From assembly GCA_029574005.1 (NCBI GenBank), contig JAKQBR010000178.1, positions 1 to 48,204 of the forward strand: DNA of 48,204 bases, read 5' to 3'. Under the pieces are notes generated by a model. It did not search any database, had not been told where the DNA came from, and saw only the letters and a program-made list of their open reading frames with translations. A program made the translations under genes and the position numbers. This DNA is from Deltaproteobacteria bacterium. GTDB lineage: Bacteria; Desulfobacterota; Desulfomonilia; UBA1062. Position 1 is the stretch's first letter. Each line of letters opens with the position of its first letter. Below are positions 6,028 through 38,822 of this stretch, in pieces.

Positions 6028-7029
6028 TCATAAGCTCTTGCCGGTCTGATCCATGATGAACCGCCAGCAATCGAGGATATCATCGCGTTCCCGTTCAGGG
6101 GAATACGTCTGTCTGATGAAGTCCGAGGCCCGGCGGGCCATGCGCCGGATGGTCTCGGGCTCTTCGCGGTGCAGGCTAAGCACGGTGCTCACGGTTTGGG
6201 CAAAGCTCAGGATATCACCCATCTCGACCGGGAAGCAGAACTCGGGCTTGAAGTACTCGCGGCCGCCCATGCCGTGATACCCCACCACGATGCACCCGCA
6301 GGCCATGGCCTCGGCCGGGGGCAGGGAAAACCCTTCCGGATAGCCGAAGCTCAAGAACATGAGCGATTCCTGCATGATACGGGCGGTCTGCTTTTCGCTT
6401 AGGCCTTCGATGGGAACCACGCCGACACCCTCCAGGTCGCCCGCGAATCTCAGGATATTGATGACCTGCAGGGCATGGTCGGGGTTTTTGCGGGGCATGA
6501 AACAGATCTGGGGCTTCTTTTCAGTCTGGAAGAAGAACAACTTCGGGTCGATGGCGTTATGGATGCGCAGCACCGGAAGATGGGGGAAGGCCCGCATCAG
6601 ATAGGCACGGTTGTCGTCCGAGACTACCATGGCCGCCCTGACGCCCGGGTCGGTATACAGCACACGGCGCGCATGCACGTCCATGGACAGCCCGCCGAAG
6701 GTGTTGTAGGCGTTCTGGTTGAAGACCACCTTGGCCGCCGGGGAGGCAAAGAGCTTCCTGAAAACGCGCGCCGCCTTGGGGCGCTCCTCGGGATGGGCGT
6801 ACAGGGGGCCGTAGACCTCGGGGATGACGAGATAATCTTCGGCCGTGAGCGTAATCCTGCCCATATAGGCCACGCGGGTAGCGTTCTCGAACCAGGTGCA
6901 GCGAAAGCCCCGCTTGCGGTGCAGGACCGAGGCCCGGATACCGTTGGCGTTCAGGACATCCACGTCGCGGTAGATGATCTTCACCCCACCCACGGGGGTG
7001 TTGTAATCCGGCGACCAGTAATAGATCAT
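6028..7029 (-). CDS. GT-B fold glycosyltransferase
   Basis: The ORF track gives 6028-7122. I start at ATG 7029 (MIYYWSPDYNTPVGGVKIIY...) because the extension is low-complexity and overlaps the upstream acetyltransferase gene. EX7E-type block FLSFGYPEGFSLPPAEAMACGCIVVG. Confidence 0.7.
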   Translation of the reverse strand: MIYYWSPDYNTPVGGVKIIYRDVDVLNANGIRASVLHRKRGFRCTWFENATRVAYMGRITLTAEDYLVIPEVYGPLYAHPEERPKAARVFRKLFASPAAKVVFNQNAYNTFGGLSMDVHARRVLYTDPGVRAAMVVSDDNRAYLMRAFPHLPVLRIHNAIDPKLFFFQTEKKPQICFMPRKNPDHALQVINILRFAGDLEGVGVVPIEGLSEKQTARIMQESLMFLSFGYPEGFSLPPAEAMACGCIVVGYHGMGGREYFKPEFCFPVEMGDILSFAQTVSTVLSLHREEPETIRRMARRASDFIRQTYSPERERDDILDCWRFIMDQTGKSL

Positions 7030-7045
7030 GGGCGTGCCCCTTGAT

Positions 7046-7798
7046 TCATGGCGTTCGACGGCCGTCGTCGCCGTGTTCGCAGAAGTCCAGAAAATCGGCG
7101 AACGACGGGAAGCGGGGGGCATGGCTGCGTTTGAATGTCTCGTAGTATTCCGGCGAGGTCTGCCTGATCACGTCGATGCCCGCCGCCTCGGCTTCGGCGG
7201 CGCCTGCGAAGAGGTAGAAGAACTCGGTGAAGTCCGCAAGCGTCGGCATCGCGCCGCGATTTTTCCTGATCGACAAGGCGAACTCCCTGGCCTCGTCGAG
7301 CTCGCGCCGCCGGTATTTCTGGTAGAGCTCATCGATGCTCATGATGACGCGGGCCGGGTTGCCGGCGGCCACGGTGTTGTCGGGTATGCGGCCTTTTACC
7401 ACGCTGCCGGCGCCGATCACGCAGTTGTTGCCGATAACCGTGTTCTTTAAGACCATGCTGCGCATGCCGATGAAGCAGTTGTCGCCGATGGTGACTGGCC
7501 CGGCCGATCCGAAGCACTCGCCGGGGTGGAGCTCTCGCAGGACGCTGTAATCGAAGCCATGGGTAAGGATGGCAACCTCCAGGGATATCTTGACCTTGTT
7601 GCCGATGGTGATGAGCTCCGGATTGCTGGGGTCGACGAACTGGGTGGCGGGCCGGAAGAACTCGCAGCCCTCGCCGATGCGCGCGCCTTTGCGGCGCAGG
7701 TAAGCGATATAGGACTCGGAGCTGCGATTGGCCACATCACGTTTGGTCGGCAGCGAGAACTTGCGTCTGAAAAAAAGCAGCCACTTCTCCAACGACAT
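7046..7798 (-). CDS. Hexapeptide-repeat (left-handed beta-helix) acetyl/acyltransferase
   Basis: The ORF track gives 7046-7912. I start at ATG 7798 (MSLEKWLLFF...). Hexapeptide repeats are ITIGNKVKIS and VTIGDNCFIGMRSMVLKNTVIGNNCVIGAGSVVKGRIPDNTVAAGNPARV. Confidence 0.8.
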   Translation of the reverse strand: MSLEKWLLFFRRKFSLPTKRDVANRSSESYIAYLRRKGARIGEGCEFFRPATQFVDPSNPELITIGNKVKISLEVAILTHGFDYSVLRELHPGECFGSAGPVTIGDNCFIGMRSMVLKNTVIGNNCVIGAGSVVKGRIPDNTVAAGNPARVIMSIDELYQKYRRRELDEAREFALSIRKNRGAMPTLADFTEFFYLFAGAAEAEAAGIDVIRQTSPEYYETFKRSHAPRFPSFADFLDFCEHGDDGRRTP

Positions 7799-7911
7799 GT
7801 CTTCTCTAATCCCTCCGTCCGTCGCATCGTATGTGCAGGCGCGAGAAAAATCAAGCCTCATTCCATCTCTCGCCGCTTGCGTCTTACGGCGAACTTCCCT
7901 ATAGTCAGCCA

Positions 7912-8823
7912 ATGCAGCCGCGTAAACCGAAATTGCCAGCGTGGGTGAGTGAGCGCATCCCGGGATGGACTCTCTCGCCTTCGGTTGTGCTCCTGATGGC
8001 CGCCATCATCTGCGGCCTGGTGATCTGGCTGGCGCTCGAGCACCGCGGCGCGGATGGATCACGGCGGATGCTCGCCGACGAGCAGGCCGGGGTGGTGCGT
8101 ATGGCGGCCGGCGCTCTGGAGGCGAGCCTCGGCATGCCCTTGTCACAGGCCGCCATCATGGCCCGCTATGACCTGGGAGAGTTCTTTCAAGGCCAAGGGG
8201 CGATCGGGTCGGTCGTGGACCGTCTGCAGGCGGGCCTGGCCGCATACCCGGACGTGATCGCCTATACCCTCGTGGATATCGGCGGTGAACTGGTCTATGC
8301 GCAAGGCATCGAGTCCGAGGCGGGAGACGCGGCCATCAACCGGTCGCTGGAGTGGGTCAAGCAGCTCCGGCTCGATGCCGCCATGCCGCCGGATGCCGTG
8401 ACCATGACCACGCCGGAAACCGCGGCGTCCCTCACGACGATCGGCCAGCTTTTCCCCGTGCGTCTGCGTGATGAGACCGTGGGCGCATTGATCGTGGCCA
8501 TCGATATCAGGAAGGCGGCCGCGCGGGTCTTCGAACCGGCGAAAGACCGCGTGTCGGGCTGTTTCCACCTCATGGATTCCCGGGGCGCCATTCTCCATCA
8601 AACAGGGCACAAAGCCGCCGGGGCGGCGCTCAATCAGGTGCGGCGGGAAGATCTCGATGACCTGCTGGCGCGTATGCGGCAGGAGCGCTCAGGCACCGTC
8701 GTCTGCAGACAGACCGGGGCACTTTCCGGGTTGTTGCCGCCCCGCATGCTCGTTTCCTGGGACCACCTCATGGTGGGACCGGGATCGTTTGTCGTCTGCC
8801 GCACCGCGCCCATGCGGCGCTGA
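7912..8823 (+). CDS. Membrane-anchored protein with extracytoplasmic double-Cache-like sensor region and no output domain
   Basis: ORF 7831-8823. I prefer ATG 7912 (MQPRKPKLPAWVSER...), which leaves a short basic N-terminus before one hydrophobic span (VVLLMAAIICGLVIWLAL). Two sensor-like blocks are present (YTLVDIGGELVYAQG; CFHLMDSRGAILHQTGH). The protein ends without a second TM, HAMP, kinase, MCP or GGDEF region. The start codon is uncertain and there is no clear RBS. Confidence 0.55.
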   Translation: MQPRKPKLPAWVSERIPGWTLSPSVVLLMAAIICGLVIWLALEHRGADGSRRMLADEQAGVVRMAAGALEASLGMPLSQAAIMARYDLGEFFQGQGAIGSVVDRLQAGLAAYPDVIAYTLVDIGGELVYAQGIESEAGDAAINRSLEWVKQLRLDAAMPPDAVTMTTPETAASLTTIGQLFPVRLRDETVGALIVAIDIRKAAARVFEPAKDRVSGCFHLMDSRGAILHQTGHKAAGAALNQVRREDLDDLLARMRQERSGTVVCRQTGALSGLLPPRMLVSWDHLMVGPGSFVVCRTAPMRR

Positions 8824-8861: not shown

Positions 8862-10589
8862 ATGATACTCTTCAACCCGAAAAGATATGATCGCTGGCAT
8901 GCCGACGAGCGTTCCAAGGAGATCGTGCTCAAGACCATCGCGTTCTTCGAGGACAAAGGCCTCAGGAAGATCAAGGCCGACGACGAGGGGCGTGTGTGGT
9001 ATGAGGACTTCCTGGCCTTCATCAGGCAGGAGCACATCTTCGCCGCCTTGCTTACCCCCGCGGGTTATGGAGCGCCCGAGTCCCGCTGGGACATGTGGCG
9101 CATCAGCGAGTACAGCGAGGTGTTGGCCTTCTACGGATTGCACTACTGGTATGCCTGGCAGGTCAGCATCCTGGGCCTGGGACCGATCTGGATGGGATCA
9201 AACGAGGACATGAAGCATGAGGCCGCCAGACTTCTGGCGGAAGGCGGGATCTTCGCCTTCGGCTTATCGGAAAGGGAGCATGGGTCCGACCTGTATGCCA
9301 CCGAGATGATGCTTCTGCCTCAAGAGGACGGCGGCTTCCTGGCGCGCGGCGAAAAATACTATATCGGCAACGCCAACAAGGCCCCGCTCATCTCCACCTT
9401 CGGCAAGGTCCAAGGCACGGGCGAATTCGCCTTCTTCGCGGTCAGGACCGGTCACGGCGGCTATGAGTGCGTGAGAAGGATCAACACCTCGGGAATGCGC
9501 CCGGCCTACGTGGCGCACTGCAAGCTCACCGACTATCCGGTCGCTCCGGAAGACCTGATTTCGCGTGGTCCCCTGGCGTGGGAAAGCGCGCTCAACACGG
9601 TCAATGTCGGCAAGTTCGGGTTGGGTTTCGCCTCCATCGGCATCTGCACGCACGCCCTGTACGAGGCCATGGGCCATGCCGGATCACGCGTCCTTTACGG
9701 CCGTCCGGTAACGGATTTCTCGAACGTGCGCACCCTGCTCACCGAGGCCTTCACCCGTCTGATCGCCATGAAGCTCTGCGGCATGCGCGCGGTCGACTAC
9801 CTGAGATGCGCCTCGGAGGATGACCGGCGCTATCTGCTTTTCAACCCGATCGCGAAGATGAAAGTCACTGCCCAGGGGATAAAGGTCATGGACCTCCTCC
9901 ATGAGGTCATGGCCGCCAGGGGTTTCGAGCAGGACACCTATTTCGAGATGGCGATCCGCGACATCGGCATGCCGCCTAGGCTCGAGGGCGCCGAGCGGAT
10001 CAACCTGGCCCTCATCATAAAGTTCATGTCCGGCTATTTCTTTGCCCACCAGGATTACCCCGAGGTCCCGAGACGGGCCGATCCCGCCAACGACGGCTAT
10101 CTCTTCCGACAGCATACCGGCGGACTCTCCAAGATACAGTTCCCGGATTACCGCAAGTGCTATGAGGGTGTGAACATCCCCAGCGTGCTGGTCTTCCGCG
10201 AACAGGTGGAGCTCTTCAAGGAGTTCCTCATCAAGATCCCGCCCACCAAGAAACAGGCCGCCGATATCGACTATATGCTTGGCGTGGGCCAGCTCTTCAC
10301 GGTAATCGTCTATGCCCAGCTCATCCTCGAGAACGCAAAGATCTATAAGATCGACGACGACCTCGTGAATGAGATCTTCAAGTTCATGATCAAGGATTTC
10401 GACGGCTCGGTCTTGAGCATGGTGGCCTCCTTCGACAACACCCACGAGCAGGAGGCATTGTTCATGAAGATGATCAAGAAGCCCATTCTGGAAAGACAGC
10501 GTTCCAACCGGGTGTGGGAAAGGCATGTCTCGACTCTGAAAGACCAGTATGTGACGGGTGAAAAGGAGGATGGCCGTGAACACGCATGA
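8862..10589 (+). CDS. Long-form acyl-CoA dehydrogenase family protein
   Basis: 575 aa. ACAD-type loop FAFGLSEREHGSDL and RLEGAERINL at the expected catalytic-Glu region. N- and C-terminal extensions relative to classical ACADs. Confidence 0.85.
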   Translation: MILFNPKRYDRWHADERSKEIVLKTIAFFEDKGLRKIKADDEGRVWYEDFLAFIRQEHIFAALLTPAGYGAPESRWDMWRISEYSEVLAFYGLHYWYAWQVSILGLGPIWMGSNEDMKHEAARLLAEGGIFAFGLSEREHGSDLYATEMMLLPQEDGGFLARGEKYYIGNANKAPLISTFGKVQGTGEFAFFAVRTGHGGYECVRRINTSGMRPAYVAHCKLTDYPVAPEDLISRGPLAWESALNTVNVGKFGLGFASIGICTHALYEAMGHAGSRVLYGRPVTDFSNVRTLLTEAFTRLIAMKLCGMRAVDYLRCASEDDRRYLLFNPIAKMKVTAQGIKVMDLLHEVMAARGFEQDTYFEMAIRDIGMPPRLEGAERINLALIIKFMSGYFFAHQDYPEVPRRADPANDGYLFRQHTGGLSKIQFPDYRKCYEGVNIPSVLVFREQVELFKEFLIKIPPTKKQAADIDYMLGVGQLFTVIVYAQLILENAKIYKIDDDLVNEIFKFMIKDFDGSVLSMVASFDNTHEQEALFMKMIKKPILERQRSNRVWERHVSTLKDQYVTGEKEDGREHA

Positions 10590-11667
10590 TGAGGCCTATA
10601 CCCGCCTGGCAAGGGTTCTCGATACCCTGCCCAACGGATTTCCTCCGAGCGCCGATGGCGTCGAGTTTGATCTGCTTCGGAAGATCTTCACACCGCGTGA
10701 GGCGGAGCTTTTCTGCGACATGCGCTTGACCTTCGAGACCGCGGAGCAGGTGGCCGAGCGCACGGGGAGGCCTCTGGCCGGCCTGGAGGATGAACTCATC
10801 CGCATGGGCAAAAACGGTCAGCTCTTCGCCCTTCAGTTCGGTGACAGCTGGTACTTCAAGATGCTGCCCTGGGTCTTCGGGATCTACGAGTTTCAGCTCA
10901 ACCGCATAGATCGCGAGATGGCCGAGCTTTCCGAACGCTACCACCCTGTCTACGCCCGGCGGTTCTTCTCCGACAAGCCCCAGCTCATGCAGGTGCTGCC
11001 GGTCGAAGAGACCATCCACGCCGCCCATGCCGCCCTGCCGTATGCGATGCTCTCGGCGCTGATCGAGAAGAGTCAGGCCTTCCTGGTAAACGAATGCATC
11101 TGCAAGAAGGAACGAGGCCTCCTAGGCAAGCCGTGCGACCGCCCGCTGGAGGTGTGCCTGGCCCTGGCGCCGGTGCCCGGTGTGTTCGACAGATCACCCA
11201 CCGGCCGCGTGATAACGCGTGATGAAGCCTATCGACTGCTCAAGCAGACCGAAGCAGCCGGACTGGTGCATCTCACCAATAACCTTCAGAACGGTCAGCT
11301 CTTCATCTGCAACTGCTGCAAGTGCTGCTGCGGGGCTTTAAGGGCCATCAATGAACTGGGGATCGCGGCCTGGGATGTCGTCAATTCACAGTATTACGCC
11401 CGGATCGATGCCGAGGCCTGCATAGCCTGCGGTCTGTGCGCACAGGGCCGTTGCCAGGTCGGGGCGGTCATGGGAGGGAATGACACCTACCAGGTTGTCC
11501 CGGAAAGGTGCATCGGCTGCGGGCTGTGCATCGGCACCTGCCCCGTGGGGGCCATCAGCCTGGTGCATAAGGAGCCGGGCATGAGAGCGGAGCCGCCCGT
11601 CACGGAGAACGAATGGTTTGAAGAGCGTGGGTGGCTTCGCGGCGTGGATTTCACGAGATATCGGTAA
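10570..11667 (+). CDS. Cys-rich Fe-S protein with two ferredoxin-type [4Fe-4S] motifs
   Basis: It starts inside the ACAD 3' end. ATG 10570 directly abuts AAGGAGG 10563-10569; the in-frame GTG 10576 gives a better 6-nt spacing. Motifs are CIACGLCAQGRC and CIGCGLCIGTCP, plus the clusters CICKKERGLLGKPC and CNCCKCCC. Confidence 0.8.
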   Translation: MAVNTHDEAYTRLARVLDTLPNGFPPSADGVEFDLLRKIFTPREAELFCDMRLTFETAEQVAERTGRPLAGLEDELIRMGKNGQLFALQFGDSWYFKMLPWVFGIYEFQLNRIDREMAELSERYHPVYARRFFSDKPQLMQVLPVEETIHAAHAALPYAMLSALIEKSQAFLVNECICKKERGLLGKPCDRPLEVCLALAPVPGVFDRSPTGRVITRDEAYRLLKQTEAAGLVHLTNNLQNGQLFICNCCKCCCGALRAINELGIAAWDVVNSQYYARIDAEACIACGLCAQGRCQVGAVMGGNDTYQVVPERCIGCGLCIGTCPVGAISLVHKEPGMRAEPPVTENEWFEERGWLRGVDFTRYR

Positions 11668-11734: not shown

Positions 11735-12988
11735 TTAAAGCATCTCGATGGCGGTGGCCATGGACACGCCGCCGCCGCCGCACAGGGTGGCAAGACCGAG
11801 TGTCTTGCCGCGCTTCTTCATGGCATGGATCAGCGTGACCATGATGCGGCTGCCGGTGGAACCGACCGGGTGTCCCAGCCCGATGCCGCTGCCGTTGACG
11901 TTGGTGATCTCGCGCTTTAATCCCAGCTCCTTTTCGCAGCCCAGGTACTGGGCGGCAAAGGCCTCGTTGACCTCGAGCAGCTCGAAGGAATCCAGGGTCA
12001 GCTTCGGATCATTCTTCAAAAGGTTCTTGACCGCCGGGACCGGGCTTAAGCCCATGACCGAGGGGTGGCAGGCGCCACGTCCAGTCGAGCGGATGCGCGC
12101 GATGGGTTTGAGGCCCAGTTCCTTGGCCTTTTCGGCCGACATGATGACCATGGCCGAGGCGCCGTCGTTCAGGCCCGAGGAGTTGCCGGCCGTGACCTTG
12201 CCGATCTTGGGGATGAATGCCGGCGGCAGGGCCTGGAGTTGTTCCATGGTCAGGCCCGGGCGGAAATGCTCGTCCGTGTCGAAGATGACGGGCGGCTTGC
12301 CCTTCTTCTGGGGTATCTCCACCGGTACGATCTCCTCCTTAAAGTCGCCTTCCTTGGTGGCGCGCTCGGTGTTGTTATGGCTGCGCAGAGCCACCTCATC
12401 CATTTCCTCGCGCGAAATATTCAAGAGCTGGGCGATGAGCTCGGCGGTGTGGCCCATGATATAGGGCTTGCCCTTGAGCGACTCGAAGGGCTGGCCTGAT
12501 TTGACGGGGCCGTCGTCGGACAAGGGCATGACATACGAGCCGCAGTGCAGCGCGCGGATCATGCCGTCGATGAAGACCGTGTCCTGCAAGCGGCAGCCCC
12601 AGCGGGCGTCCAGGCTGACATAGGGCGCGCCGGACATGTGCTCCACGCCTCCGGCCAGGATGATGTCGGCCATGCCGGCCTGGATCATGGCCATGCCGCT
12701 TAACGTTGCTTCCATGCCCGAGATGCAGACACGGTTGACCGTGACGGCCGTGACGGTATCCGGGATACCCGCTAAGAGTGCGGCGACGCGGGTGACGTTC
12801 AGGGTGTTGACCGGGTCCATGCAACAGCCGAAGCGTACATCGTCGATCATGGCCGGATCGATCCCGGCGCGTTTGATCGCCTCCTTCATGACTACCGCGC
12901 CGAGGCGGGCGGCGATGACGTCCTTGAGCGATCCGCCGAAGGAGCCGATGGCGGTACGGCATGCCGATACAACTACTACATCCTTCAT
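11735..12988 (-). CDS. Acetyl-CoA C-acetyltransferase (thiolase II family)
   Basis: 417 aa. Thiolase signatures VNRVCISGMEA, NVNGSGIGLGHPVGSTGSR and CGGGGVSMA. AAGGAG lies 6 nt upstream of the ATG. Confidence 0.95.
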   Translation of the reverse strand: MKDVVVVSACRTAIGSFGGSLKDVIAARLGAVVMKEAIKRAGIDPAMIDDVRFGCCMDPVNTLNVTRVAALLAGIPDTVTAVTVNRVCISGMEATLSGMAMIQAGMADIILAGGVEHMSGAPYVSLDARWGCRLQDTVFIDGMIRALHCGSYVMPLSDDGPVKSGQPFESLKGKPYIMGHTAELIAQLLNISREEMDEVALRSHNNTERATKEGDFKEEIVPVEIPQKKGKPPVIFDTDEHFRPGLTMEQLQALPPAFIPKIGKVTAGNSSGLNDGASAMVIMSAEKAKELGLKPIARIRSTGRGACHPSVMGLSPVPAVKNLLKNDPKLTLDSFELLEVNEAFAAQYLGCEKELGLKREITNVNGSGIGLGHPVGSTGSRIMVTLIHAMKKRGKTLGLATLCGGGGVSMATAIEML

Positions 12989-15242: not shown

Positions 15243-15419
15243 TCAGCACCTCCTCGTGTCCCTATCATCATAGCAAAATCCGATCGATTTTGTCATCCAC
15301 GATTGTTCATTCCCCGGGGTCTCCCGCCCAAAGGGCTCGATGACGAAAAATGCCTTTACAACACTTCGCATTATCTCATAAACTGAGAAGGAATGATCAT
15401 TGGAGAGAGGAGGTAGCAC

Positions 15420-16079
15420 TTGAAAAACGAGACGCTTCAGGCCATCATAGACAATAACGCCCGCTTTGTTGAAGACCACGATCAGGCCTACTTTCAGGGC
15501 CATATGAGTGCTCAGCACCCGAGGGTGACCATGGTCGGATGCTGCGATTCGCGCTGCCAGGCGCATGTCATCGAGGTCGATCCCATCGACAGGGTCTTCA
15601 CGGTGGAGACCATCGGCAATCAGATGGCCAGCGCCCAGGGATCGGTGGATTACGGCGTTCTGCATCTGCATACCCCGATCCTGCTGATCCTGGGACATAC
15701 CGACTGCGGCGCAATCAAGGCCTTTATGAAGGGCTATGACCGAGAGAACGAGGCCATCAAACGTGAGCTCGACTTCCTCAAACCGCCCTTGAAAACCCAG
15801 GTGGACCCTCACGCGGACTTCGAGAAGGAGCTTTTGAAGAATGTCCAGAAAAACGTCGACTATCAGGTGCAAACCGCTCTTGAACGCTACCGGGCGCAGA
15901 TCTCAGAGGGCAGGCTTATGGTCGTCGGCGCCATCTATGATTTCACCAACGCCCTCGGCAATGGCTACGGTCGGGTATCCATAACCAACGTCAACGGCGT
16001 GAAGGACCTGAAGGCTATCAGGGAACTGGTCCAAGGCGTCAATCTGGAGCGCAGCCTGGCTAGGGTGAATCTTGACTGA
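15420..16079 (+). CDS. Beta-class carbonic anhydrase
   Basis: TTG start with GGAGAGAGGAGG upstream. Zinc-ligand motifs CCDSRC (CxDxR) and HTDCGA (HxxC). Confidence 0.9.
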   Translation: MKNETLQAIIDNNARFVEDHDQAYFQGHMSAQHPRVTMVGCCDSRCQAHVIEVDPIDRVFTVETIGNQMASAQGSVDYGVLHLHTPILLILGHTDCGAIKAFMKGYDRENEAIKRELDFLKPPLKTQVDPHADFEKELLKNVQKNVDYQVQTALERYRAQISEGRLMVVGAIYDFTNALGNGYGRVSITNVNGVKDLKAIRELVQGVNLERSLARVNLD

Positions 16080-16115
16080 CCTCGGCGTGCATCTGGCCTA
16101 AGACTGGAGGTTTGC

Positions 16116-16499
16116 GTGACCCTTTCCCATCTCAAGGATATCTTGACGGCCGAGGTTGTCTGCGGGCATGAGAAATTATCCAGCGTCGAGGTGAGCACCG
16201 CTTTCGGGGCCGACTTGATGAGCGATGTGCTGGCCTTCGCCCGTTCCGGTTGTCTGCTCATCACGGGATTGACCACCCCGCAAACGGTCCGTACGGCCTT
16301 TGCGCTGGACATCGCCGGCATCCTCGTCTGCCGGGGGAAACAGCCTCAGCCGCAGGCCGTTGACATCGCCCGCGAGCTGGGCATCCCCATTTTGAGGACC
16401 GAACACATCATGTTCGAGACCTGCGGTATCCTCTACCGTGAAGGCATGCGCGGCTGCGTTTGCGAGATCAGTGCGGGAGATAGACCCAGTGTCGATTGA
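16116..16499 (+). CDS. DRTGG-domain protein (copy 1)
   Basis: 127 aa. GTG start with GGAGG 5 nt upstream. The pattern ...GADLMSDVLAFARSGCLLITGLTTPQTVRTA...AGILVCRGKQP...ELGIPIL matches the small stand-alone DRTGG proteins as I remember them. Confidence 0.75.
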   Translation: MTLSHLKDILTAEVVCGHEKLSSVEVSTAFGADLMSDVLAFARSGCLLITGLTTPQTVRTAFALDIAGILVCRGKQPQPQAVDIARELGIPILRTEHIMFETCGILYREGMRGCVCEISAGDRPSVD

Positions 16500-16926
16500 G
16501 GATGAATTCGGAGGCAGCTACACGGTCAGGGGCAGGGACTTCATCGATGCCGGCTTGGTTTCCAGCCAGATCAAGAAGCTCTTGAAGGATCGCGGCATTC
16601 CCGAGGACGTGGTCCGCAAGGTCGCGGTCGTGACCTTCGAGGCCGAGGTCAATATCATCTCCTATGCCGAGATCGGAACGATCAACTTTCATGTGGACGA
16701 CAGGGCCGTCACCATCGAAGCCATGGATAAGGGGCAGGGCATCCCGAACGTCGATCTCGCGCTCGTGGAAGGTTATTCCACCGCCGACGACACCATCCGT
16801 GACATGGGCTTCGGCGCGGGCATGGGCCTGCCCAATATCAAAAAGTTCTCCGACGAGTTTGAGATCACATCCATCGTGGGGAAGGGCACCACGCTCAAGA
16901 GCGTGATCAGGATTCCCCCTGAATAG
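16489..16926 (+). CDS. RsbW/SpoIIAB-like HATPase (anti-sigma-regulatory-factor-type Ser/Thr kinase fold)
   Basis: ORF 16438-16926. The likely start is GTG 16489 (or GTG 16471), overlapping the DRTGG stop. Bergerat-fold boxes are EAEVNIISYAE (N), MDKGQGIP (G1) and GFGAGMGLPN (G2). No DHp domain. Confidence 0.7.
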   Translation: MSIEDEFGGSYTVRGRDFIDAGLVSSQIKKLLKDRGIPEDVVRKVAVVTFEAEVNIISYAEIGTINFHVDDRAVTIEAMDKGQGIPNVDLALVEGYSTADDTIRDMGFGAGMGLPNIKKFSDEFEITSIVGKGTTLKSVIRIPPE

Positions 16927-16959
16927 TCCTGACAAACCCTTATCGAGAAGGGGGTGCTG

Positions 16960-17298
16960 ATGCGTTTGAAAGAGATACAAGCGGAACTGGGGCTTGCGCT
17001 GCAATGCGCCGGCGCAGGGTTGGACGCCGAGGTCACGGGCGGATACGTGGGCGATCTCCTGAGCGATGTCATGGCCAACAGCGCCAAGGGACAGGTCTGG
17101 GTGACGCGGCAGGTGCATCAGAACATCGTGGCCGTGGCGACACTGAAAGAGCTCGTCGCCATCATCATCGTTCAAGGCGCCCTGCCCGATCAGGATACCG
17201 TCGCCAAGGCCGAGAAAGAGGGGCTGACCATTTTGACCACCAGCATGCCGGCCTTCGAGGTCGTGGGCCGAATCCACCGCCTCCTCTCCGCGTCATAA
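16960..17298 (+). CDS. DRTGG-domain protein (copy 2)
   Basis: ATG 16960 (GTG 16954 is also possible) follows GAAGGGGG. The stretch GDLLSDVMANSAKGQVWVTRQVHQNIVAVA...IIIVQGALPDQ...EGLTIL is paralogous in layout to copy 1. Confidence 0.75.
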   Translation: MRLKEIQAELGLALQCAGAGLDAEVTGGYVGDLLSDVMANSAKGQVWVTRQVHQNIVAVATLKELVAIIIVQGALPDQDTVAKAEKEGLTILTTSMPAFEVVGRIHRLLSAS

Positions 17299-17315
17299 CC
17301 CATGCAGGGGTCACG

Positions 17316-18056
17316 ATGGCGCGCGACTTCACCTGCGATCTTCATATCCATACCTGCCTGTCGCCCTGCGGCGACCTGGATATGCACCCGCGCGCGCTCG
17401 TCGCGGCGGCCTGCGCCAGAGGACTGGATATTATCGCCGTCTGCGACCACAACAGCATGGAAAACGCCGGATATGTGATGAAGGCCGCCGCCGGCACGTC
17501 GCTGACGGTGGTGCCGGGCATGGAGGTAACCTCAGCCGAAGAGGTGCACATCGTGGCCTTGCTGGAGGACCTCGAGCGGGCCAGTACTCTCCAGGATCTT
17601 GTTTATGCCCACCTCTTCGGGCTCAACGACGAAGACGTGTTCGGCGTGCAGGCCGTGGTCAACGAGTACGGCGAGGTGGAGGGACTCAATCCGCGGCTTC
17701 TGATCGGAGCCACCACGCTTTCGCTCGACCGTCTGGTACAGGCCGTTCATGACATGAACGGCCTGGCCATCGCCTCGCATATCGATCGCGAGGCCTTCGG
17801 CATCATCGGCCAGCTCGGATTCATCCCCCCGGAGGTGCGGTTCGACGCATTGGAGATCTCGGCCGCGATGGACATGGCGAGCGCCCGCAAACGCTACCCC
17901 GAGCTGGCGGGTTACCCCTTCGTTTCCTCATCGGATGCCCATTACCTGGCGGATATCGGCCGCGGTGTCACTCGACTCAAGATGGAGGCACCCACGCTTG
18001 CCGAGATCGGAATGGCCCTGCGGAGTGAAGGCGGGCGGACCATGGTGGTGCCTTGA
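17316..18056 (+). CDS. PHP-domain metal-dependent phosphoesterase
   Basis: The track ORF 17004-18056 has a shadow N-terminal extension, so I start at ATG 17316 (AGGGG 6 nt upstream). The PHP motif DLHIHTCLSPCGD is followed by AVCDHNS, GMEV, ASHIDR and SSDAH metal-ligand blocks. Confidence 0.85.
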   Translation: MARDFTCDLHIHTCLSPCGDLDMHPRALVAAACARGLDIIAVCDHNSMENAGYVMKAAAGTSLTVVPGMEVTSAEEVHIVALLEDLERASTLQDLVYAHLFGLNDEDVFGVQAVVNEYGEVEGLNPRLLIGATTLSLDRLVQAVHDMNGLAIASHIDREAFGIIGQLGFIPPEVRFDALEISAAMDMASARKRYPELAGYPFVSSSDAHYLADIGRGVTRLKMEAPTLAEIGMALRSEGGRTMVVP

Positions 18057-18602
18057 ATGATCGAATTGGCCCTGCATATCCTGGACATCGCCGAGAACTC
18101 GCTCAGGGCCGGGGCGACCCTGGTCGAGATCGAGGTGGTCGAGGACCTCGTTCGTGACCGGCTCACCATCACGATCGTGGACAACGGCCACGGAATGACG
18201 CCCGATGAGGTCGAACGCGCCCTGGACCCCTTCTATACCACCAAGAAGGTCAGGCGCATCGGTCTGGGACTGCCCATGCTGAAACAGGCCTGCCAGATCA
18301 CGGGCGGTTCTTTCAGCATCGAATCGGGGCCTGGGTCGGGCACGCGCATCAGGGCAGAGTTCGTCCATTCCCATATCGATCGCCAACCCTTAGGTGATGT
18401 CCCGGGCGCCATTATCGCCCTGATCCTGGAGAAGCCGGAAGTGGACATCCTCTATACCCATCGCCGTGATGCGGCCGTGTATGTCATGGACACGCGCGAG
18501 GTCCGCGCGGAGCTGGAAGGCATCCCCTTGAATCATCACGAGGTCATCAACCTGATACGTGACAATATCGCCCAAGGCATCCGTGAACTGAGTACGCCAT
18601 GA
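18057..18602 (+). CDS. Stand-alone histidine-kinase-type catalytic (HATPase) domain protein lacking DHp
   Basis: 181 aa. The ATG immediately follows the PHP stop (TGAATG). Boxes are DIAENSLRAGA (N), DNGHGM (G1), FYTTK (F), GLGLPML (G2) and GPGSGT (G3). No phospho-accepting His helix, TM or receiver. Confidence 0.8.
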   Translation: MIELALHILDIAENSLRAGATLVEIEVVEDLVRDRLTITIVDNGHGMTPDEVERALDPFYTTKKVRRIGLGLPMLKQACQITGGSFSIESGPGSGTRIRAEFVHSHIDRQPLGDVPGAIIALILEKPEVDILYTHRRDAAVYVMDTREVRAELEGIPLNHHEVINLIRDNIAQGIRELSTP

Positions 18603-18699
18603 TCCAATAGTTTTCGCTTGCAATTTTCTGGAATGTGTCATTGATAAAAGGCCTCGACGCATTTCGCGCAGCTGCTCAGACAAGAAGGAAGCACGTAAG

Positions 18700-21600
18700 A
18701 TGGAAAAACGCTTGAAGGAACCGATCCGATTGGTAACGGCCACGGCGCTCTTTGACGGCCACGACGCGTCGATCAATATCATACGACGCTTGCTGCAGGA
18801 TGCCGGGGCCGAGGTGATCCACCTGGGGCACAACCGTGGCGTGCAGGAGATCGCGCGGGCCGCGATCCAGGAGGGTGCTCAGGCCATTGCCGTCAGTTCG
18901 TACCAGGGCGGGCATATCGAATTTTTCAAATATCTCATCGATCTACTCGAGGAAAAGGGCTGCGGCTATGTCAAGGTATTCGGCGGCGGCGGCGGGGTGA
19001 TCGTCCCGGACGAGATCAGGGAGCTCGAGGCCTATGGGGTGGCCAAGATCTACTCGCCCCTGGACGGCAAGCGCCTGGGTTTGAAGGGCATGATCGACCA
19101 TATGCTGCACTTGTGCCGCGAGGTGCGCATGCCCGAGGTCAAGGGCGACTTGAGCGCGCTCAAGCGCAAAGATCCGGCCGTGATCGGCCGCCTCATCAAT
19201 CTGGCCGAGCAGCTCAGTCTCGGGGTCAATCAACGCTTCGAGGAGCTCAAACCCATGCTCAAGACGGACAGGCCGGTCCCGGTGGTGGGCATCACCGGCA
19301 CCGGAGGTTCCGGCAAGAGCTCTTTCATCGACGAGCTGGTGCGCAGGTTCCTGAACTTCTATCCGCAGAAGAGCATGGCCATCATCGCGGTGGACCCGTC
19401 ACGCTCCAAAAGCGGAGGCGCGCTGTTGGGAGACCGGATCCGCATGAATGCCATCGAGAACGAGCGCGTCTACATGCGCTCCCTGGCCACCCGCCTCTCG
19501 GCGGATGAACTCTCGGTCGCCACGAAGGATGCCGTGGACGTGGTAAAGGCTGCGGGCTATGATCTCGTCCTGGTGGAAACGAGCGGCATCGGCCAGGACG
19601 ATACGGCCGTTACCCGGATGAGCGACTGCGCCGTCTATGTCATGACCGCCGAGTACGGGGCGCCGTCCCAGCTCGAGAAGATCGACATGCTCGACTATGC
19701 CGACGTGGTGGTCATCAACAAGTTCGAGCAGGAGCGATCCTTTGATGCCCTCAGGGACGTGCGCAAGCAGTTCATGCGCAACCATAACCTGTTCGATCTC
19801 GCCGAGGAGGATCTGCCCGTGTTCGGCACCGTGGCCAGCCGCTACGACGATGCCGGAACGGACCGGGTATTTGCCTACCTCATGCAGCTGCTCAAACACA
19901 AGGGCTTGACGGAATGGGACGTGCCGGAGGCACCGGCCGAGGCGGCGCGGACACCGCGTCGCTCCATCGTGCCGCCGGGCAGGGACCAGTACCTGCGCTC
20001 GATCGCCCAGGCCGTGCGGTCCTACCATGCGCATACAGAACGGACCGCTGGGAAGATCAGGGCCCTGGCCGTGCTCAAGGCCGAGTTCAAAGACAGCGAA
20101 GGACAGGAAAAGGATGCCCTGCAACGCAGGATCCAGAGGCTGGAGCAGCTGATCAGTCCGGAAGACCGCAAGCTGAACGAGTCCTGGCTCAGGGAGAAAA
20201 AGCGCTACCAGGCCAAGACCTTCAGCTACGAGGTGCGTGGAAAGGAGATCCGCGTGCCCCTGGCCGCCACCTCGCTGTGCGGATTGGAGATCCCGCGGGT
20301 GGCGCTGCCCGATTACCACGATGAAGGCGAGATCTACCGCTTCAAGCGCAAGGAAAACCTTCCCGGGCAGTTCCCTTACACCGCCGGGGTATTTCCCTTC
20401 AAACGCGACTGGGAAGACCCCAAGCGACAGTTCGCGGGCGAAGGCACGCCGGAGCGCACCAACAAGCGCTTCCACTACCTGTGCCGCAATGACGAAGCCA
20501 AGCGCCTTTCGACCGCCTTTGACAGCGTGACGCTCTACGGCGAGGACCCGCACGAGCGCCCGGACATCTTCGGCAAGATCGGCGAGAGCGGGGTGAGTGT
20601 ATGCACCGTGGAGGACATGGCCAAGCTCTATGCCGGTTTCGACCTGTGCTCGCCCATGACCAGCGTATCCATGACCATCAACGGACCGGCACCCATCATG
20701 GCCGCCATGTTCTTCAATACCGCCATCAATCAGCAACTAGAAAAGTTCCGGCAGGAAAAAAGGCGTGATCCCGACGATGCCGAACGCGCCGCGATCGAGG
20801 CCTGGGTGCTCGCGAATGTGCGCGGCACGGTCCAGGCCGATATCCTCAAGGAGGACCAGGGTCAGAACACGTGCATCTTCAGCACCGAGTTCGCGCTGAA
20901 GATGATGGGCGACATCCAGGAGTTCTTCATTAAAAACCATGTGAACAACTTCTATTCCGTAAGCATCAGCGGCTACCATATCGCCGAGGCCGGGGCCAAT
21001 CCCGTGAGCCAGCTGGCCTTCACCCTGGCCAACGGATTCACCTATGTGGAGTACTATCGGTCGCGCGGCATGGATGTGAATGAGTTCGCGAAGAACTTCT
21101 CGTTCTTCTTCAGTAGCGGCATGGACGCGGAATACAGCGTGCTGGGCCGCGTTGCGCGCCGCATCTGGGCCATTGCCATGCGCGACCTGTATCAGGCCGA
21201 TGAAAGGGCGCAGATGCTCAAGTACCATATCCAGACCTCGGGCCGGTCGCTGCACAGCATGGAGATCCAGTTCAACGATATCCGCACCACGTTGCAGGCC
21301 CTGACGGCCCTGAACGACAACTGCAACTCCTTGCACACCAACGCCTATGACGAGGCCATCACCACGCCCACCGAGGAATCGGTGCGCCGCGCCATGGCCA
21401 TCCAGCTGATCATCAACCGCGAATTCGGACTGAGCAAAAACGAGAACCAGCTCCAGGGCTCGTACTTCATGGAATGGTTGACCGACGCCGTTGAGGAGGC
21501 GGTGCTGCAGGAGTTCGAGCGCCTGAGCGAGCGCAAGGGGGTGCTGGGCGCCATGGAGGTGCATTACCAGCGCGCCAAGATCCAGCAGGAATCGCTCTAC

Positions 21601-21927
21601 TACGAGCACCTCAAGCACAGCGGCAAGCTGCCCATCATCGGGGTCAACACCTATGAGAACCCGGACGCCGTGGAACAGCCGGCCGGGGGCTGCATCCCGC
21701 TGACGCGCGCCACGCCGGAGGAGAAGATGGCGCAGCTCACTAACCTGCGCGCCTTCCAGGAGCGCAACCGTCACCAGGCTCAAGCAGCGCTCAAGCGCCT
21801 GAAAGATGTGGCCTTGAGCGGCGCCAACATCTTCGAAGAGCTTATGCAGACCGTCAAGGTAGCCAGCCTCGGACAGATCACGGCCGCGCTGTATGAAATC
21901 GGCGGCCGCTACCGGAGGAATATGTGA
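18700..21927 (+). CDS. icmF: Fused isobutyryl-CoA mutase (B12-binding domain + MeaB-like GTPase + mutase barrel)
   Basis: 1075 aa in three parts. The N-terminal B12 Rossmann domain has TALFDGHDASINIIRR. The central G-domain has the GITGTGGSGKSS P-loop, ETSGIGQ and INKFEQ. The C-terminal mutase domain has FPYTAGVFPFKR, ILKEDQGQNTCIF and ISGYHIAEAGA. Confidence 0.9.
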   Translation: MEKRLKEPIRLVTATALFDGHDASINIIRRLLQDAGAEVIHLGHNRGVQEIARAAIQEGAQAIAVSSYQGGHIEFFKYLIDLLEEKGCGYVKVFGGGGGVIVPDEIRELEAYGVAKIYSPLDGKRLGLKGMIDHMLHLCREVRMPEVKGDLSALKRKDPAVIGRLINLAEQLSLGVNQRFEELKPMLKTDRPVPVVGITGTGGSGKSSFIDELVRRFLNFYPQKSMAIIAVDPSRSKSGGALLGDRIRMNAIENERVYMRSLATRLSADELSVATKDAVDVVKAAGYDLVLVETSGIGQDDTAVTRMSDCAVYVMTAEYGAPSQLEKIDMLDYADVVVINKFEQERSFDALRDVRKQFMRNHNLFDLAEEDLPVFGTVASRYDDAGTDRVFAYLMQLLKHKGLTEWDVPEAPAEAARTPRRSIVPPGRDQYLRSIAQAVRSYHAHTERTAGKIRALAVLKAEFKDSEGQEKDALQRRIQRLEQLISPEDRKLNESWLREKKRYQAKTFSYEVRGKEIRVPLAATSLCGLEIPRVALPDYHDEGEIYRFKRKENLPGQFPYTAGVFPFKRDWEDPKRQFAGEGTPERTNKRFHYLCRNDEAKRLSTAFDSVTLYGEDPHERPDIFGKIGESGVSVCTVEDMAKLYAGFDLCSPMTSVSMTINGPAPIMAAMFFNTAINQQLEKFRQEKRRDPDDAERAAIEAWVLANVRGTVQADILKEDQGQNTCIFSTEFALKMMGDIQEFFIKNHVNNFYSVSISGYHIAEAGANPVSQLAFTLANGFTYVEYYRSRGMDVNEFAKNFSFFFSSGMDAEYSVLGRVARRIWAIAMRDLYQADERAQMLKYHIQTSGRSLHSMEIQFNDIRTTLQALTALNDNCNSLHTNAYDEAITTPTEESVRRAMAIQLIINREFGLSKNENQLQGSYFMEWLTDAVEEAVLQEFERLSERKGVLGAMEVHYQRAKIQQESLYYEHLKHSGKLPIIGVNTYENPDAVEQPAGGCIPLTRATPEEKMAQLTNLRAFQERNRHQAQAALKRLKDVALSGANIFEELMQTVKVASLGQITAALYEIGGRYRRNM

Positions 21928-22457
21928 GCGATCTAGGGCGGGGCTATGTCCATATCTATACCGGCAACGGCAAAGGCAAGACCACGGCCGCCCTGGGATT
22001 GGCCCTCAGGGCGGCGGGCAGAGGTCTCAAGACCATCATGATCCAGTTCATGAAAGGGCAGTTCTATGGTGAACTGGAAGGGGTCAAGCATCTCTCCGGA
22101 CTCGTCTGCATCGAGCAGTACGGCCACCCGCAATTCTGCCGCTTCACCGATCCACCCGACAAGGCGGATGTAGAGCGGGCGCGGGCGGCCCTGGCCCGCA
22201 TGCAAGCGATTTCAGCCGCGCGCTCCTGCGATATCCTGATCGGGGACGAGGCCGTCACGGCCATGCTGTTCAACCTCATCTCCGAAGACGATCTCTTGGC
22301 GCTCATGGCCGGCAGACCTCGGGCCCAGGAACTGATCCTGACCGGCCGGGGCGCAACGCAAAGGCTGATCGAGGCGGCGGACCTCGTCACCGAGATGCAG
22401 GATATCAAGCATTACTATGCCCAAGGCATACCGGCCCGTGAAGGCATCGAGAACTAG
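21924..22457 (+). CDS. cobO: ATP:cob(I)alamin adenosyltransferase, CobA/CobO/BtuR type
   Basis: 177 aa. The GTG start overlaps the icmF stop (GTGA at 21924-21927). P-loop YTGNGKGKTTAALG. Confidence 0.85.
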   Translation: MSDLGRGYVHIYTGNGKGKTTAALGLALRAAGRGLKTIMIQFMKGQFYGELEGVKHLSGLVCIEQYGHPQFCRFTDPPDKADVERARAALARMQAISAARSCDILIGDEAVTAMLFNLISEDDLLALMAGRPRAQELILTGRGATQRLIEAADLVTEMQDIKHYYAQGIPAREGIEN

Positions 22458-22474: not shown

Positions 22475-22515
22475 GAATTAAATTTCCCTCCGGAGGGAAA
22501 TTAAATTCTCTTTTT
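22475..22515 (+). terminator. Rho-independent terminator closing the carbonic anhydrase-to-cobO gene run
   Basis: GAATTAAATTTCCCTCC / GGAGGGAAATTAAATTC form a ~15-bp stem with one A-A mismatch, followed by TCTTTTTC. It lies 18 nt after the cobO stop. Confidence 0.8.
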
Positions 22516-23279: not shown

Positions 23280-24134
23280 ATGGAAGCGAATCTTACTCTG
23301 AAAGGCATCATTGAGCAGGAACTCGGCCGCAAAGAGATTGAACTGCCCATCATCGATTTCATCGCGAACAATCTGGGCCAGCTCATCAGCAAGGATGACG
23401 TCGATTTCAATAAATTGGCCAAGGTGATTGAAAAGGACCCGGCGCTCACGGTCAAGGTCATGAACCTGGCGAACTCCGCTTTTTATGCCGGTCTGGTAAA
23501 AACCAAGAGCGTGGACCGCGCCATCGCCCGCGTGGGTCTTCTGGCCATCCGCAGCTTCCTGATGACGGTTTCCATGAGAGACGTCTTTACAGGCGGGACC
23601 CATTTCCAGGAGCTCTTCCGCTTGAACTGGCACCACAGCCTGGGATGTGCCATCTGCTGCAAGCACATCGCCGAGCATCTCGGGCTTCGCGCCCTTGCCG
23701 AGGATGCCTACCTGCTCGGGCTGCTGCACGATATCGGCACGGTTTCAATCCTTCACGCCCTGTCCAAGGCCACGGAGAAGCTCGAAGGCACCAATGAACT
23801 GAGCGGCGCCGTGGTTACTGAGGCCATCGGGGCGCTGCATGCCGCAGCCGGCTCAAGGATCCTCTCCAAACTCAAATTTGAGGAACGCTTCTGCCGCATC
23901 GTTTCGCTGCACAACAATCCGGAAAAGTATCCTGAAAAGGACGACCCGCTTTTCAACATCCTTTTCATATCCAACATGCTGCTCAAAAAGATCGGCCTTG
24001 ACCTTGAGCCGGACCCCGACGTGTCCATCATGGACCTCGCGCAGAACGAAAGGCTCGCGCTGGATGTCATGTTCATGCAGATGCTCGAAGCGGATCTCAA
24101 GAACCTGATCCTGAATATGGAAGGCCTGCTTTAA
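23280..24134 (+). CDS. HDOD-domain signalling protein
   Basis: 284 aa with HDOD-type blocks LAKVIEKDPALTVKVMNLANSAFYAG, WHHSLGCA and LLHDIG. It has no other domain. Confidence 0.85.
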   Translation: MEANLTLKGIIEQELGRKEIELPIIDFIANNLGQLISKDDVDFNKLAKVIEKDPALTVKVMNLANSAFYAGLVKTKSVDRAIARVGLLAIRSFLMTVSMRDVFTGGTHFQELFRLNWHHSLGCAICCKHIAEHLGLRALAEDAYLLGLLHDIGTVSILHALSKATEKLEGTNELSGAVVTEAIGALHAAAGSRILSKLKFEERFCRIVSLHNNPEKYPEKDDPLFNILFISNMLLKKIGLDLEPDPDVSIMDLAQNERLALDVMFMQMLEADLKNLILNMEGLL

Positions 24135-37625: not shown

Positions 37626-37652
37626 CCCACACCTCATTTCTTCAATCTTCAC

Positions 37653-38732: not shown

Positions 38733-38822
38733 CTGCCCAACTCCGGAACAATCGATGAAAATTCATACCCTACGCTATCAGGAACCAGGGCGTCTGGCAA
38801 GGCAATGTTACGGCCCTTCAGG

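Follow-up and report, generated by a model that had tools for sequence, protein, structure and literature searches.

In fermenters, acetogens, and syntrophs, the economy of H2 and formate is set by electron-bifurcating enzymes of the Bfu/HydABC family, both hydrogenases and formate dehydrogenases. Bfu/HydABC operons carry conserved genes for kinase-like, PHP, and DRTGG proteins that have hitherto been unexplained. The genes called “HisK” and “HydD” in Bfu operons encode proteins outside the holoenzyme, for which a role in maturation or regulation has been assumed (PMC8880783, PMC9304861), and TamHydS, a group D sensor, was stated to have unknown partners (PMC8163306, PMC13104023). Literature searches on DRTGG combined with hydrogenase, and on PHP combined with histidine kinase and bifurcating, retrieved no published description of the DRTGG/HATPase_c_2/PHP set. 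Here, we describe a five-gene cassette of these families on a contig of a Deltaproteobacteria bacterium (JAKQBR010000178.1). The region searched, hereafter the window, was the entire contig of 48,204 nucleotides (nt), and all contig-level negative results refer to these 48 kb. In the window, the cassette lies between a gene for a beta-carbonic anhydrase (CA) and the icmF and cobO genes. The reading that we favor, and to which we give about an even chance, is that it is a relocated or paralogous accessory cassette of a Bfu operon, still tied to the CO2/formate node and most likely acting in trans on a Bfu enzyme encoded off the contig.

Eight closely packed genes occupy positions 15420 to 22457 of the plus strand, running from the CA gene through the cassette to icmF and cobO. 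This run comprises the following features, with protein lengths in amino acids (aa).

15355 to 15384, plus strand: sigma-70-type promoter-like site, TTTACA-18-TAAACT, in the divergent intergenic region 5′ of the CA gene
15420 to 16079, plus strand: beta-carbonic anhydrase, 219 aa (Pfam Pro_CA PF00484, 1.9e-24)
16116 to 16499, plus strand: DRTGG-1, 127 aa (Pfam PF07085, 1.1e-11)
16489 to 16926, plus strand: SpoIIAB/RsbW-like GHKL protein (HATPase_c_2), 145 aa, GTG start (Pfam PF13581, 1.6e-9)
16960 to 17298, plus strand: DRTGG-2, 112 aa (Pfam PF07085, 5.4e-5, and paralogy to DRTGG-1)
17316 to 18056, plus strand: PHP-family metal-dependent phosphoesterase, 246 aa (Pfam PHP, 9e-9; PHP_C, 1e-7)
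18057 to 18602, plus strand: 181-aa GHKL ATPase without a DHp helix (“HK181”; Pfam HATPase_c, 1.3e-16; HATPase_c_3, 9.4e-10)
18603 to 18699, plus strand: 97-nt spacer between cassette and icmF, with no terminator and a possible internal promoter
18700 to 21927, plus strand: icmF, fused isobutyryl-CoA mutase/MeaB-type GTPase, 1075 aa (NCBIfam NF045497 equivalog)
21924 to 22457, plus strand: cobO, ATP:corrinoid adenosyltransferase, 177 aa (Pfam CobA_CobO_BtuR, 9.6e-58)
22476 to 22515, plus strand: intrinsic-terminator-like hairpin and U-run after cobO, GAAUUAAAUUUCCCUCCGGAGGGAAAUUAAAUUC then UCUUUUUCU

The CA gene ends 36 nt before DRTGG-1. Within the cassette, DRTGG-1 and the HATPase_c_2 gene overlap by 11 nt, 33 nt separate the latter from DRTGG-2, and a further 17 nt lead to the PHP gene, whose TGA stop codon directly abuts the ATG of the 181-aa ATPase gene in the same frame (18054 to 18059, 0 nt between). 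At the end of the run, icmF and cobO overlap by 4 nt. The original prediction had listed five same-strand genes with these junctions and with these distances to CA and to icmF-cobO, all of which we confirmed; the length that it gave for DRTGG-2, 113 aa, is actually 112 aa. On two further metagenome contigs that encode an identical 181-aa protein, gene calls made independently yielded 127, 145, 112, 246, 181, and 1075 aa. The set of domains named at the outset (DRTGG, HATPase, DRTGG, PHP, and a DHp-less GHKL protein) was borne out by Pfam and NCBIfam profiles, with DRTGG-2 falling just below the cutoff and being supported by paralogy. Pfam also agrees that none of the five proteins contains a HisKA/DHp, receiver, STAS, or DNA-binding domain, and Pfam scans of the large open reading frames (ORFs) agree that hydrogenase families are absent from the 48-kb contig. 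The hairpin and U-run proposed as a terminator after cobO are present as well, and none was seen before cobO.

To determine the company that the cassette keeps elsewhere, we scanned one genome per species with a 12-sequence alignment of the 181-aa protein. Of the at least 594 loci that the scan returned, the best 80 form the census. Gene calls within ±10 kb used profiles derived from the window proteins and Pfam-verified loci, with profile matches given priority; the label “FdhA_C” includes NuoG-like subunits of complex-I clusters, and the label “HydS” on small Fer4 proteins is spurious. Pfam confirmed HydA, NuoF, NuoE, HydF, and complex-I subunits in the census loci. The 80 loci span Syntrophales/Smithella, Clostridia, Bacteroidales, Nitrospirota, Anaerolineae, and other groups, and 48 of them contain the full five-gene cassette in the order of the window (DRTGG, HATPase_c_2, DRTGG, PHP, and the approximately 180-aa GHKL ATPase). 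A NuoF-type gene lies within ±10 kb in 68 of the 80 loci, NuoE in 69, and HydD, an approximately 127-aa thioredoxin-like 2Fe-2S ferredoxin, in 68. The [FeFe]-hydrogenase HydA was found in 30/80 loci and a molybdopterin subunit (FdhA or NuoG-like) in 16/80, some of which are complex-I clusters, while IcmF occurs in 2 of the 80. The constant partner of the cassette is not the hydrogenase itself; it is the Bfu-family (HydABC) module of NuoE, HydD, and NuoF. The recurrent link to operons of NADH-dependent [FeFe]-hydrogenases that the original prediction had named for these genes is therefore real, and it is wider than stated, extending to any NuoE/NuoF enzyme of the Bfu type, be it a hydrogenase, a formate dehydrogenase, or complex-I-like. 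In Nitrospirota and some Thermodesulfobacteriota, the cassette stands 5′ of complex-I-type clusters with NuoG-like, NuoH, NuoD, and NuoL genes (L035, 12429 to 19421; L043, 4769 to 13094), which extends the association to Nuo-type Bfu clusters.

In Clostridia and Bacteroidales, a protein of approximately 460 aa is encoded between the small kinase and DRTGG-2 (about 30 loci; for example, L074, from Enterocloster citroniae DSM 19261, 6940 to 8340, minus strand). Two N-terminal 4Fe-4S domains (Fer4), an H-domain (Fe_hyd_lg_C), and a C-terminal iron-sulfur motif give it the architecture of the group D HydS type. Because this HydS-like gene is embedded in the cassette, the cassette proteins are candidate partners of a putative H2 sensor. 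In the Clostridia and Bacteroidales genomes with the HydS-like gene, the 181-aa ATPase gene is placed between those for NuoE and HydD.

Natural fusions connect the components further. DRTGG is fused to HATPase_c_2 in L029, and a pair of CBS domains is fused to HATPase_c_2 in L035, L039, L046, L052, and L086. The CBS-fused proteins (L035, 4000 to 4959; L046, 1923 to 2891; L052, 8004 to 8924; L086, 7275 to 8372; L039, 19283 to 20350) are 306 to 365 aa long, and their N-terminal CBS pair replaces or supplements a separate DRTGG-1; these CBS pairs point to sensing of adenine nucleotides by the small kinase. PHP and the 181-aa ATPase form a single chain of 427 to 433 aa in four representative clusters (P0142, P0148, P0254, and P0258), and in P0169 the 181-aa ATPase is fused to a thioredoxin-like 2Fe-2S ferredoxin domain (HydD). 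Because natural fusions link these components, they suggest two submodules, one formed by a ligand-binding domain and the small kinase and the other by PHP and the GHKL ATPase, which may dock onto HydD.

Close relatives of the window locus (57 to 89% identity) belong to one Thermodesulfobacteriota clade of 11 lineages. In its general layout, either a Bfu-type formate dehydrogenase with FocA or CA precedes the cassette, which is followed by zero to three inserted genes and by icmF-cobO, often with a thiolase gene thereafter. Five lineages are of the CA type (the window with L097 to L099; L001 to L003; L006; L008/L100; and L091), and four are of the formate dehydrogenase/FocA type (L004, L007, L093, and L095). 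L009 and L087 have the closest paralogous cassettes, which are linked to formate dehydrogenase and lack icmF. In a neighbor-joining tree of the 181-aa protein, the CA and formate dehydrogenase contexts are interleaved in one clade, which is nested among the Bfu-linked cassettes of Syntrophales. CA holds the position of FdhA-FocA in the sister lineages, and this replacement at the same position suggests that the cassette remains attached to the CO2/formate node. Since the four sister lineages, L087, and L009 are linked to formate dehydrogenase, the ancestral partner of the cassette would still be a Bfu enzyme. In L009 (10704 to 14772), the place of icmF after the cassette is taken by genes for an 892-aa dCache-PAS histidine kinase and a 462-aa sigma-54-dependent response regulator. 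The pairing of L002 (CA type) with L087 (formate dehydrogenase type) as two cassettes of one genome was not accepted as evidence; their contigs agree in length (72,580 bp) and GC content (0.56), but the source databases differ (ENA/JGI versus NCBI/Logan).

In six loci (L004, L007, L009, L087, L093, and L095), the FdhA near the cassette is split by an in-frame stop into ORFs of 351 and 539 aa, and this stop is probably a selenocysteine codon. The window encodes SelA, the L-seryl-tRNA(Sec) selenium transferase (30398 to 31786, plus strand), so the organism makes selenoproteins, and this fits an organism that makes a selenocysteine-type FdhA like that of its relatives.

The neighborhood of icmF was assessed from both sides. 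When the census was reversed, 4 of the 80 nearest metagenomic icmF loci had the cassette (L099, with 89% IcmF identity, L100, L102, and L103); among these 80, L101 (70% IcmF identity) and all loci of 63% identity or less lack it. Found at 2 of the 80 loci in the cassette census and at 4 of the 80 in the icmF census, the pairing is lineage-specific and confined to the one Thermodesulfobacteriota clade. The adjacency to icmF and CA, which the original prediction had put forward as an output of the cassette, therefore stands insofar as it recurs in about nine lineages and is not a one-off; as a general second output it does not stand, since it is lineage-specific synteny. In the relatives, the cassette and icmF are separated by 96 to 204 nt or by one to three extra genes. 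The latter are a HAMP-HD gene in L006, which has no equivalent in L008, L009, or the window; an opposite-strand TPR gene in L008/L100; an SLT gene with small opposite-strand ORFs in L091; and two acyl-CoA synthetase genes in L095. Genes of cyclic-di-GMP-type signaling occur near the block, namely, HDOD in the window (23280 to 24134, plus strand), HAMP-HD in L006 (10614 to 11945), and GGDEF in L091 (17806 to 18543).

The layout of promoters and terminators bears on where the cassette unit begins. The formate dehydrogenase-type loci have a hairpin terminator after FocA and a TTGACA box before DRTGG-1, indicating that the cassette is a transcription unit of its own. In the CA-type lineages (5 of 5, GC content of 50 to 61%), the motif CCTTTACAA-N16/17-CATA(A/G/C)A is conserved 5′ of the CA gene, and L006 has a terminator hairpin immediately 5′ of this motif. 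This conserved promoter motif implies that CA joined the cassette unit as its first gene, and to judge from these elements, CA is the probable first gene of the cassette's transcription unit in the window. The 97-nt spacer before icmF is unstructured (z = +1.76), is conserved in sequence with L001, and contains promoter-like boxes, TTGCAA...TGATAAAA, at about 18615 to 18650. An Rfam scan of the contig detected no riboswitch before icmF.

We then examined the five proteins individually. DRTGG-1, which is preceded by a GGAGG ribosome-binding site 7 nt 5′ of its start, has weak additional Pfam matches to Hpr_kinase_N and PucR, and its motifs DlMSDVL...LLTGLt...RGK are conserved among 68 homologues. 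DRTGG-2 scores 23.4 bits, below the Pfam cutoff of 25.2, and is evidently paralogous to DRTGG-1 (30% identity, E = 5e-11), with homologues at the matching position in 72 loci. The HATPase_c_2 protein passes the PF13581 cutoff. It matches the anti-sigma F factor family TIGR01925 (7.8e-12) at 45 bits against a cutoff of 135, and its match to SpoIIAB in the PDB is at about 1e-3; the ExExN, DxGxG, and GFGAGMGL boxes are conserved across its homologues. Outside the cassette, IcmF reaches 1761.6 bits against the NCBIfam NF045497 equivalog cutoff of 1500, with Pfam B12-binding, MeaB, and MM_CoA_mutase matches, and the zinc motifs CxDxR (CCDSR) and HxxC (HTDCG) are readable in the translation of CA.

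The PHP protein retains metal ligands H10, H12, D44, H45, E70, H78, H155, D207, and H209, all invariant among 60 homologues, and it has a family-specific set of conserved cysteines (C7, C14, C18, and C43) beside the HxH motif. Its AlphaFold2 model (predicted local distance difference test [pLDDT] score of 92.8) most resembles endonuclease Q (EndoQ), the PHP domain of RNase AM, TM0559, and pAp phosphatase in Foldseek (TMq 0.58 to 0.76), and no PHP-type protein phosphatase (CpsB/YwqE) is among its top 50 matches. Weak matches in NCBIfam and PADLOC link the protein to TrlF and Ppl, through the PHP domains of these two. An alternative database call (P0271, 225 aa) starts 21 codons later and would lose the HxH motif; this start was rejected, as the orthologues back the 246-aa start at 17316.

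The 181-aa ATPase consists of a Bergerat-fold domain and a conserved C-terminal domain of about 75 aa with the motif SHIDRxPLGD. It begins directly at the N box (D-x3-N) and has no HisKA match in Pfam. Its family comprises 286 clusters at 50% identity (E ≤ 1e-30), nearly all of about 180 aa, in which D10, N14, D42, G44, G46, G69, G71, G84, D108, and G113 are invariant; the window protein is 36 to 66% identical to family members over its full length. By sequence, its best scores are to catalytic domains of histidine kinases. Among the 50 Foldseek matches listed for its AlphaFold2 model (pLDDT of 88.5), the top 26 are MutL, PMS2, MLH1, and TopoVI-B, aligned over approximately 160 to 197 columns (TMq 0.43 to 0.58), and histidine kinase domains cover just the first 100 or so residues of the model. 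Sequence searches of the PDB returned no solved structure of a close homologue for any of the five proteins. PADLOC assigned no defense system to the cassette and gave nothing at all for the four non-PHP proteins.

Ratios of nonsynonymous to synonymous substitution (dN/dS) are 0.09 to 0.19 for the five cassette genes and CA, measured against L002 (against L001 for PHP), with CA at 0.13 against L002; for icmF they are 0.10 to 0.19 against L006 and L004. By this measure, all five cassette genes, CA, and icmF are under purifying selection.

From homology, gene order, distribution, fusions, purifying selection, and the layout of promoters and terminators, we infer a regulatory role, partners, and action in trans as follows. 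In Bfu-type (HydABC-family) oxidoreductases, NuoE, HydD, and NuoF are combined with a further module of one of three kinds: [FeFe]-hydrogenase, formate dehydrogenase, or complex-I-like. The cassette would be an ATP- or adenine nucleotide-dependent control device for such an electron-sink enzyme of formate or H2. The DRTGG domains, like the CBS pairs in some relatives, may be ligand-binding partners, and perhaps substrates, of the SpoIIAB-like kinase; PHP and the 181-aa GHKL ATPase would form the second pair, which in other organisms would reach the Bfu enzyme by docking onto HydD. The two GHKL proteins could carry out ATP-dependent switching, with reversal or hydrolysis of a signal by the PHP enzyme. 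In the lineage of the window, the cassette is its own transcription unit between a one-carbon (C1) gene set and an icmF-cobO(-thiolase) block; it would act in trans on a Bfu enzyme encoded off the contig, with CA providing the tie to CO2 and formate. icmF would be a lineage-specific neighbor, possibly cotranscribed, and not a general output of the cassette.

Several observations weigh against this proposal. Pfam scans found no gene for NuoE, HydD, NuoF, HydA, or FdhA on the 48-kb contig. The fold of PHP is nearest to nucleic acid and nucleotide phosphodiesterases, and the 181-aa ATPase resembles MutL and TopoVI-B as much as kinases, so that a kinase/phosphatase signaling mechanism is not established. 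The partner-switch/phosphatase mechanism offered with the original prediction is likewise not backed by the structure models, which place PHP near EndoQ, RNase AM, and pAp phosphatase and the 181-aa protein near MutL and TopoVI-B. In addition, the linkage of cassette, icmF, and cobO is kept in 9 of the 11 lineages of the clade, with the other flanks reshuffled, and its persistence could reflect a functional tie to icmF; spacer folding revealed no terminator between the cassette and icmF in the window.

Such a tie is the core of an alternative that we consider unlikely but to which we still grant some weight, namely, that the cassette is a portable ATP-dependent switch, free of any Bfu enzyme, which was rewired to IcmF/CobO (entry of isobutyryl- and butyryl-CoA into beta-oxidation) and/or, through CA, to CO2 and bicarbonate. 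CA, the cassette, icmF, and cobO are codirectional, with no terminator until after cobO; their linkage in about nine lineages persists across GC contents of 50 to 63% and differing outer flanks, genes for acyl-CoA synthetase and thiolase join the block in some relatives, and the cassette is under purifying selection without adjoining Bfu genes. Set against this are the rarity of the pairing (2/80 and 4/80 in the two censuses), the lack of a cassette in L101 (70% IcmF identity), the genes inserted before icmF in L006, L008/L100, L091, and L095, one of them on the opposite strand, the promoter-like boxes before icmF, and the four sister lineages that keep a Bfu formate dehydrogenase beside the cassette. 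A related and improbable version has the cassette sense energy charge or redox state on its own, without hydrogenase, HydS, or HydD, and couple a formate/CO2 electron sink (CA or formate dehydrogenase) to the entry of branched- or short-chain acyl-CoA oxidation (IcmF-CobO) in this lineage. Loss of function can be set aside: that the cassette is a decaying remnant left when a Bfu operon was lost or moved would agree with the lack of Bfu genes on the contig, but it is scarcely credible, because all five ORFs are intact with every family-invariant residue, the Bfu-less arrangement is kept in five lineages, and the dN/dS values of 0.09 to 0.19 rule it out.

The structural likenesses of PHP and the 181-aa ATPase instead bear on two other accounts. 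In one, which we find rather doubtful, the cassette is a system for assembly, maturation, or repair of Bfu flavin/iron-sulfur enzymes, with a GHKL clamp or chaperone and a PHP esterase that acts on a nucleotide cofactor or by-product, the Bfu enzyme again being encoded elsewhere. The cassette does sit deep in structural operons, with the 181-aa ATPase between NuoE and HydD in Clostridia and fused to a 2Fe-2S ferredoxin in P0169; the fold of this ATPase is similar to ATPases of the MutL/Hsp90/TopoVI-B type, the PHP model resembles pAp phosphatase and RNase AM, and published operon maps label such genes as “maturation and/or regulation” (PMC8880783). A SpoIIAB-like kinase and sensor-type DRTGG and CBS domains are not what this account would lead one to expect, the sensory hydrogenase-like gene of the group D type in Clostridia and Bacteroidales cassettes points to signaling, and active Bfu enzymes have been obtained by purification in the absence of cassette proteins (PMC8880783). 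The other account, in which PHP and the MutL-like ATPase act on nucleic acid (turnover of neighboring transcripts, or a DNA-directed or defense function) and the metabolic link is indirect, is highly improbable. It draws on the resemblance of PHP to EndoQ and RNase AM, the weak NCBIfam and PADLOC matches to TrlF and Ppl, and the alignment of the 181-aa ATPase with MutL and TopoVI-B, but the cassette has no nucleic acid-binding domain, PHP lacks the zinc finger and C-terminal domains of EndoQ (246 versus about 400 aa), and PADLOC is blank for the other four proteins. Moreover, 85% of the loci, in several phyla, adjoin Bfu genes, which is unlike the patchy, island-like distribution of defense systems.

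The remainder of the window contains, according to Pfam, genes for glycosyltransferases, NhaA, OmpA, HDOD, MiaA, MutL, PGI, SelA, glycine cleavage proteins, FolD, and others. On the side of the CA gene, an acyl-CoA dehydrogenase-like gene (8862 to 10589) is followed by one for a 369-aa protein with a 4Fe-4S ferredoxin domain (10558 to 11667) and by a thiolase gene on the minus strand (11735 to 12988). The latter shares 75% DNA identity with the thiolase gene 3′ of cobO in L004, which implies local rearrangement of a gene set for acyl-CoA oxidation. A glycine cleavage cluster (GcvP halves and GcvT) with FolD represents C1/folate metabolism (34460 to 39695, minus strand). A bacterial class A RNase P RNA (40828 to 41198, minus strand; 308 bits) is the sole Rfam match of the contig.

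Together, these results define the cassette as five proteins joined by natural fusions, which track the NuoE/HydD/NuoF module and not the hydrogenase, and they identify a lineage in which it is under selection without adjoining genes for Bfu, HydS, or HydD. This lineage offers a minimal natural cassette for biochemistry and a testable link to CO2 and formate. If the cassette were indeed a self-contained sensor, the lineage would amount to a natural experiment in which the accessory system of hydrogenase operons is pared down to its minimal core of five proteins; if the cassette governed IcmF, this would be a new tie between fatty acid entry and the status of the electron sink in syntrophic metabolism. 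The analysis reveals no new mechanism; it sharpens the question of what the accessory genes of hydrogenases and formate dehydrogenases do.

Several known systems share parts of this design. The small stand-alone HATPase_c_2 protein, with SpoIIAB-like N and G boxes and adjoining small putative partners and a phosphoesterase, recalls SpoIIAB-SpoIIAA-SpoIIE and RsbW-RsbV-RsbU. The cassette differs from these in lacking a STAS antagonist, a PP2C phosphatase, and an adjacent sigma factor, with DRTGG/CBS and PHP in their places; Pfam found no PP2C or STAS family in the five proteins or their neighbors. Unlike a two-component sensor kinase, the 181-aa protein has no DHp/HisKA domain, and there is no receiver gene within the cassette unit to serve as its cognate. 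Its model aligns with the ATPase domain and the start of the transducer domain of GHL ATPases (MutL N-terminal part and TopoVI-B) over 175 to 197 columns (TMq 0.50 to 0.58), in keeping with its HATPase_c_3 match, but the protein is far smaller, has no DNA-binding or dimerization domain, and shows moderate likeness, with root mean square deviations of 4.4 to 8 Å. The PHP protein has the complete set of metal ligands of EndoQ, RNase AM (YciV/TrpH), and 3′,5′-nucleoside bisphosphate phosphatase; in contrast to EndoQ, it lacks the extra domains and has its own conserved cysteine set.

The closest counterparts are the operons of the Bfu enzymes and their sensors. Clostridia and Bacteroidales arrange DRTGG, HATPase_c_2, a HydS-like gene, DRTGG, and PHP in a manner that recalls the group D (M2e) HydS of Thermoanaerobacter mathranii (TamHydS), whereas the window and all Syntrophales-type cassettes have no HydS-like gene, so that any sensing in the window would not be of H2 through HydS. 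In Bfu/HydABC operons (NiFe-HydABCSL of Acetomicrobium mobile, and HydABC of clostridia and syntrophs), the cassette families occur in the same order beside NuoE-HydD-NuoF-HydA/FdhA, as in 68 of the 80 census loci, and by its operon setting the published “HisK” may correspond to the 181-aa protein. The window contig differs in having no NuoE, HydD, NuoF, HydA, or FdhA, with CA first and icmF-cobO after. The cassette as a companion of HydABC operons is thus visible in published gene maps, and the version headed by CA and followed by icmF, without Bfu, HydS, or HydD, is new.

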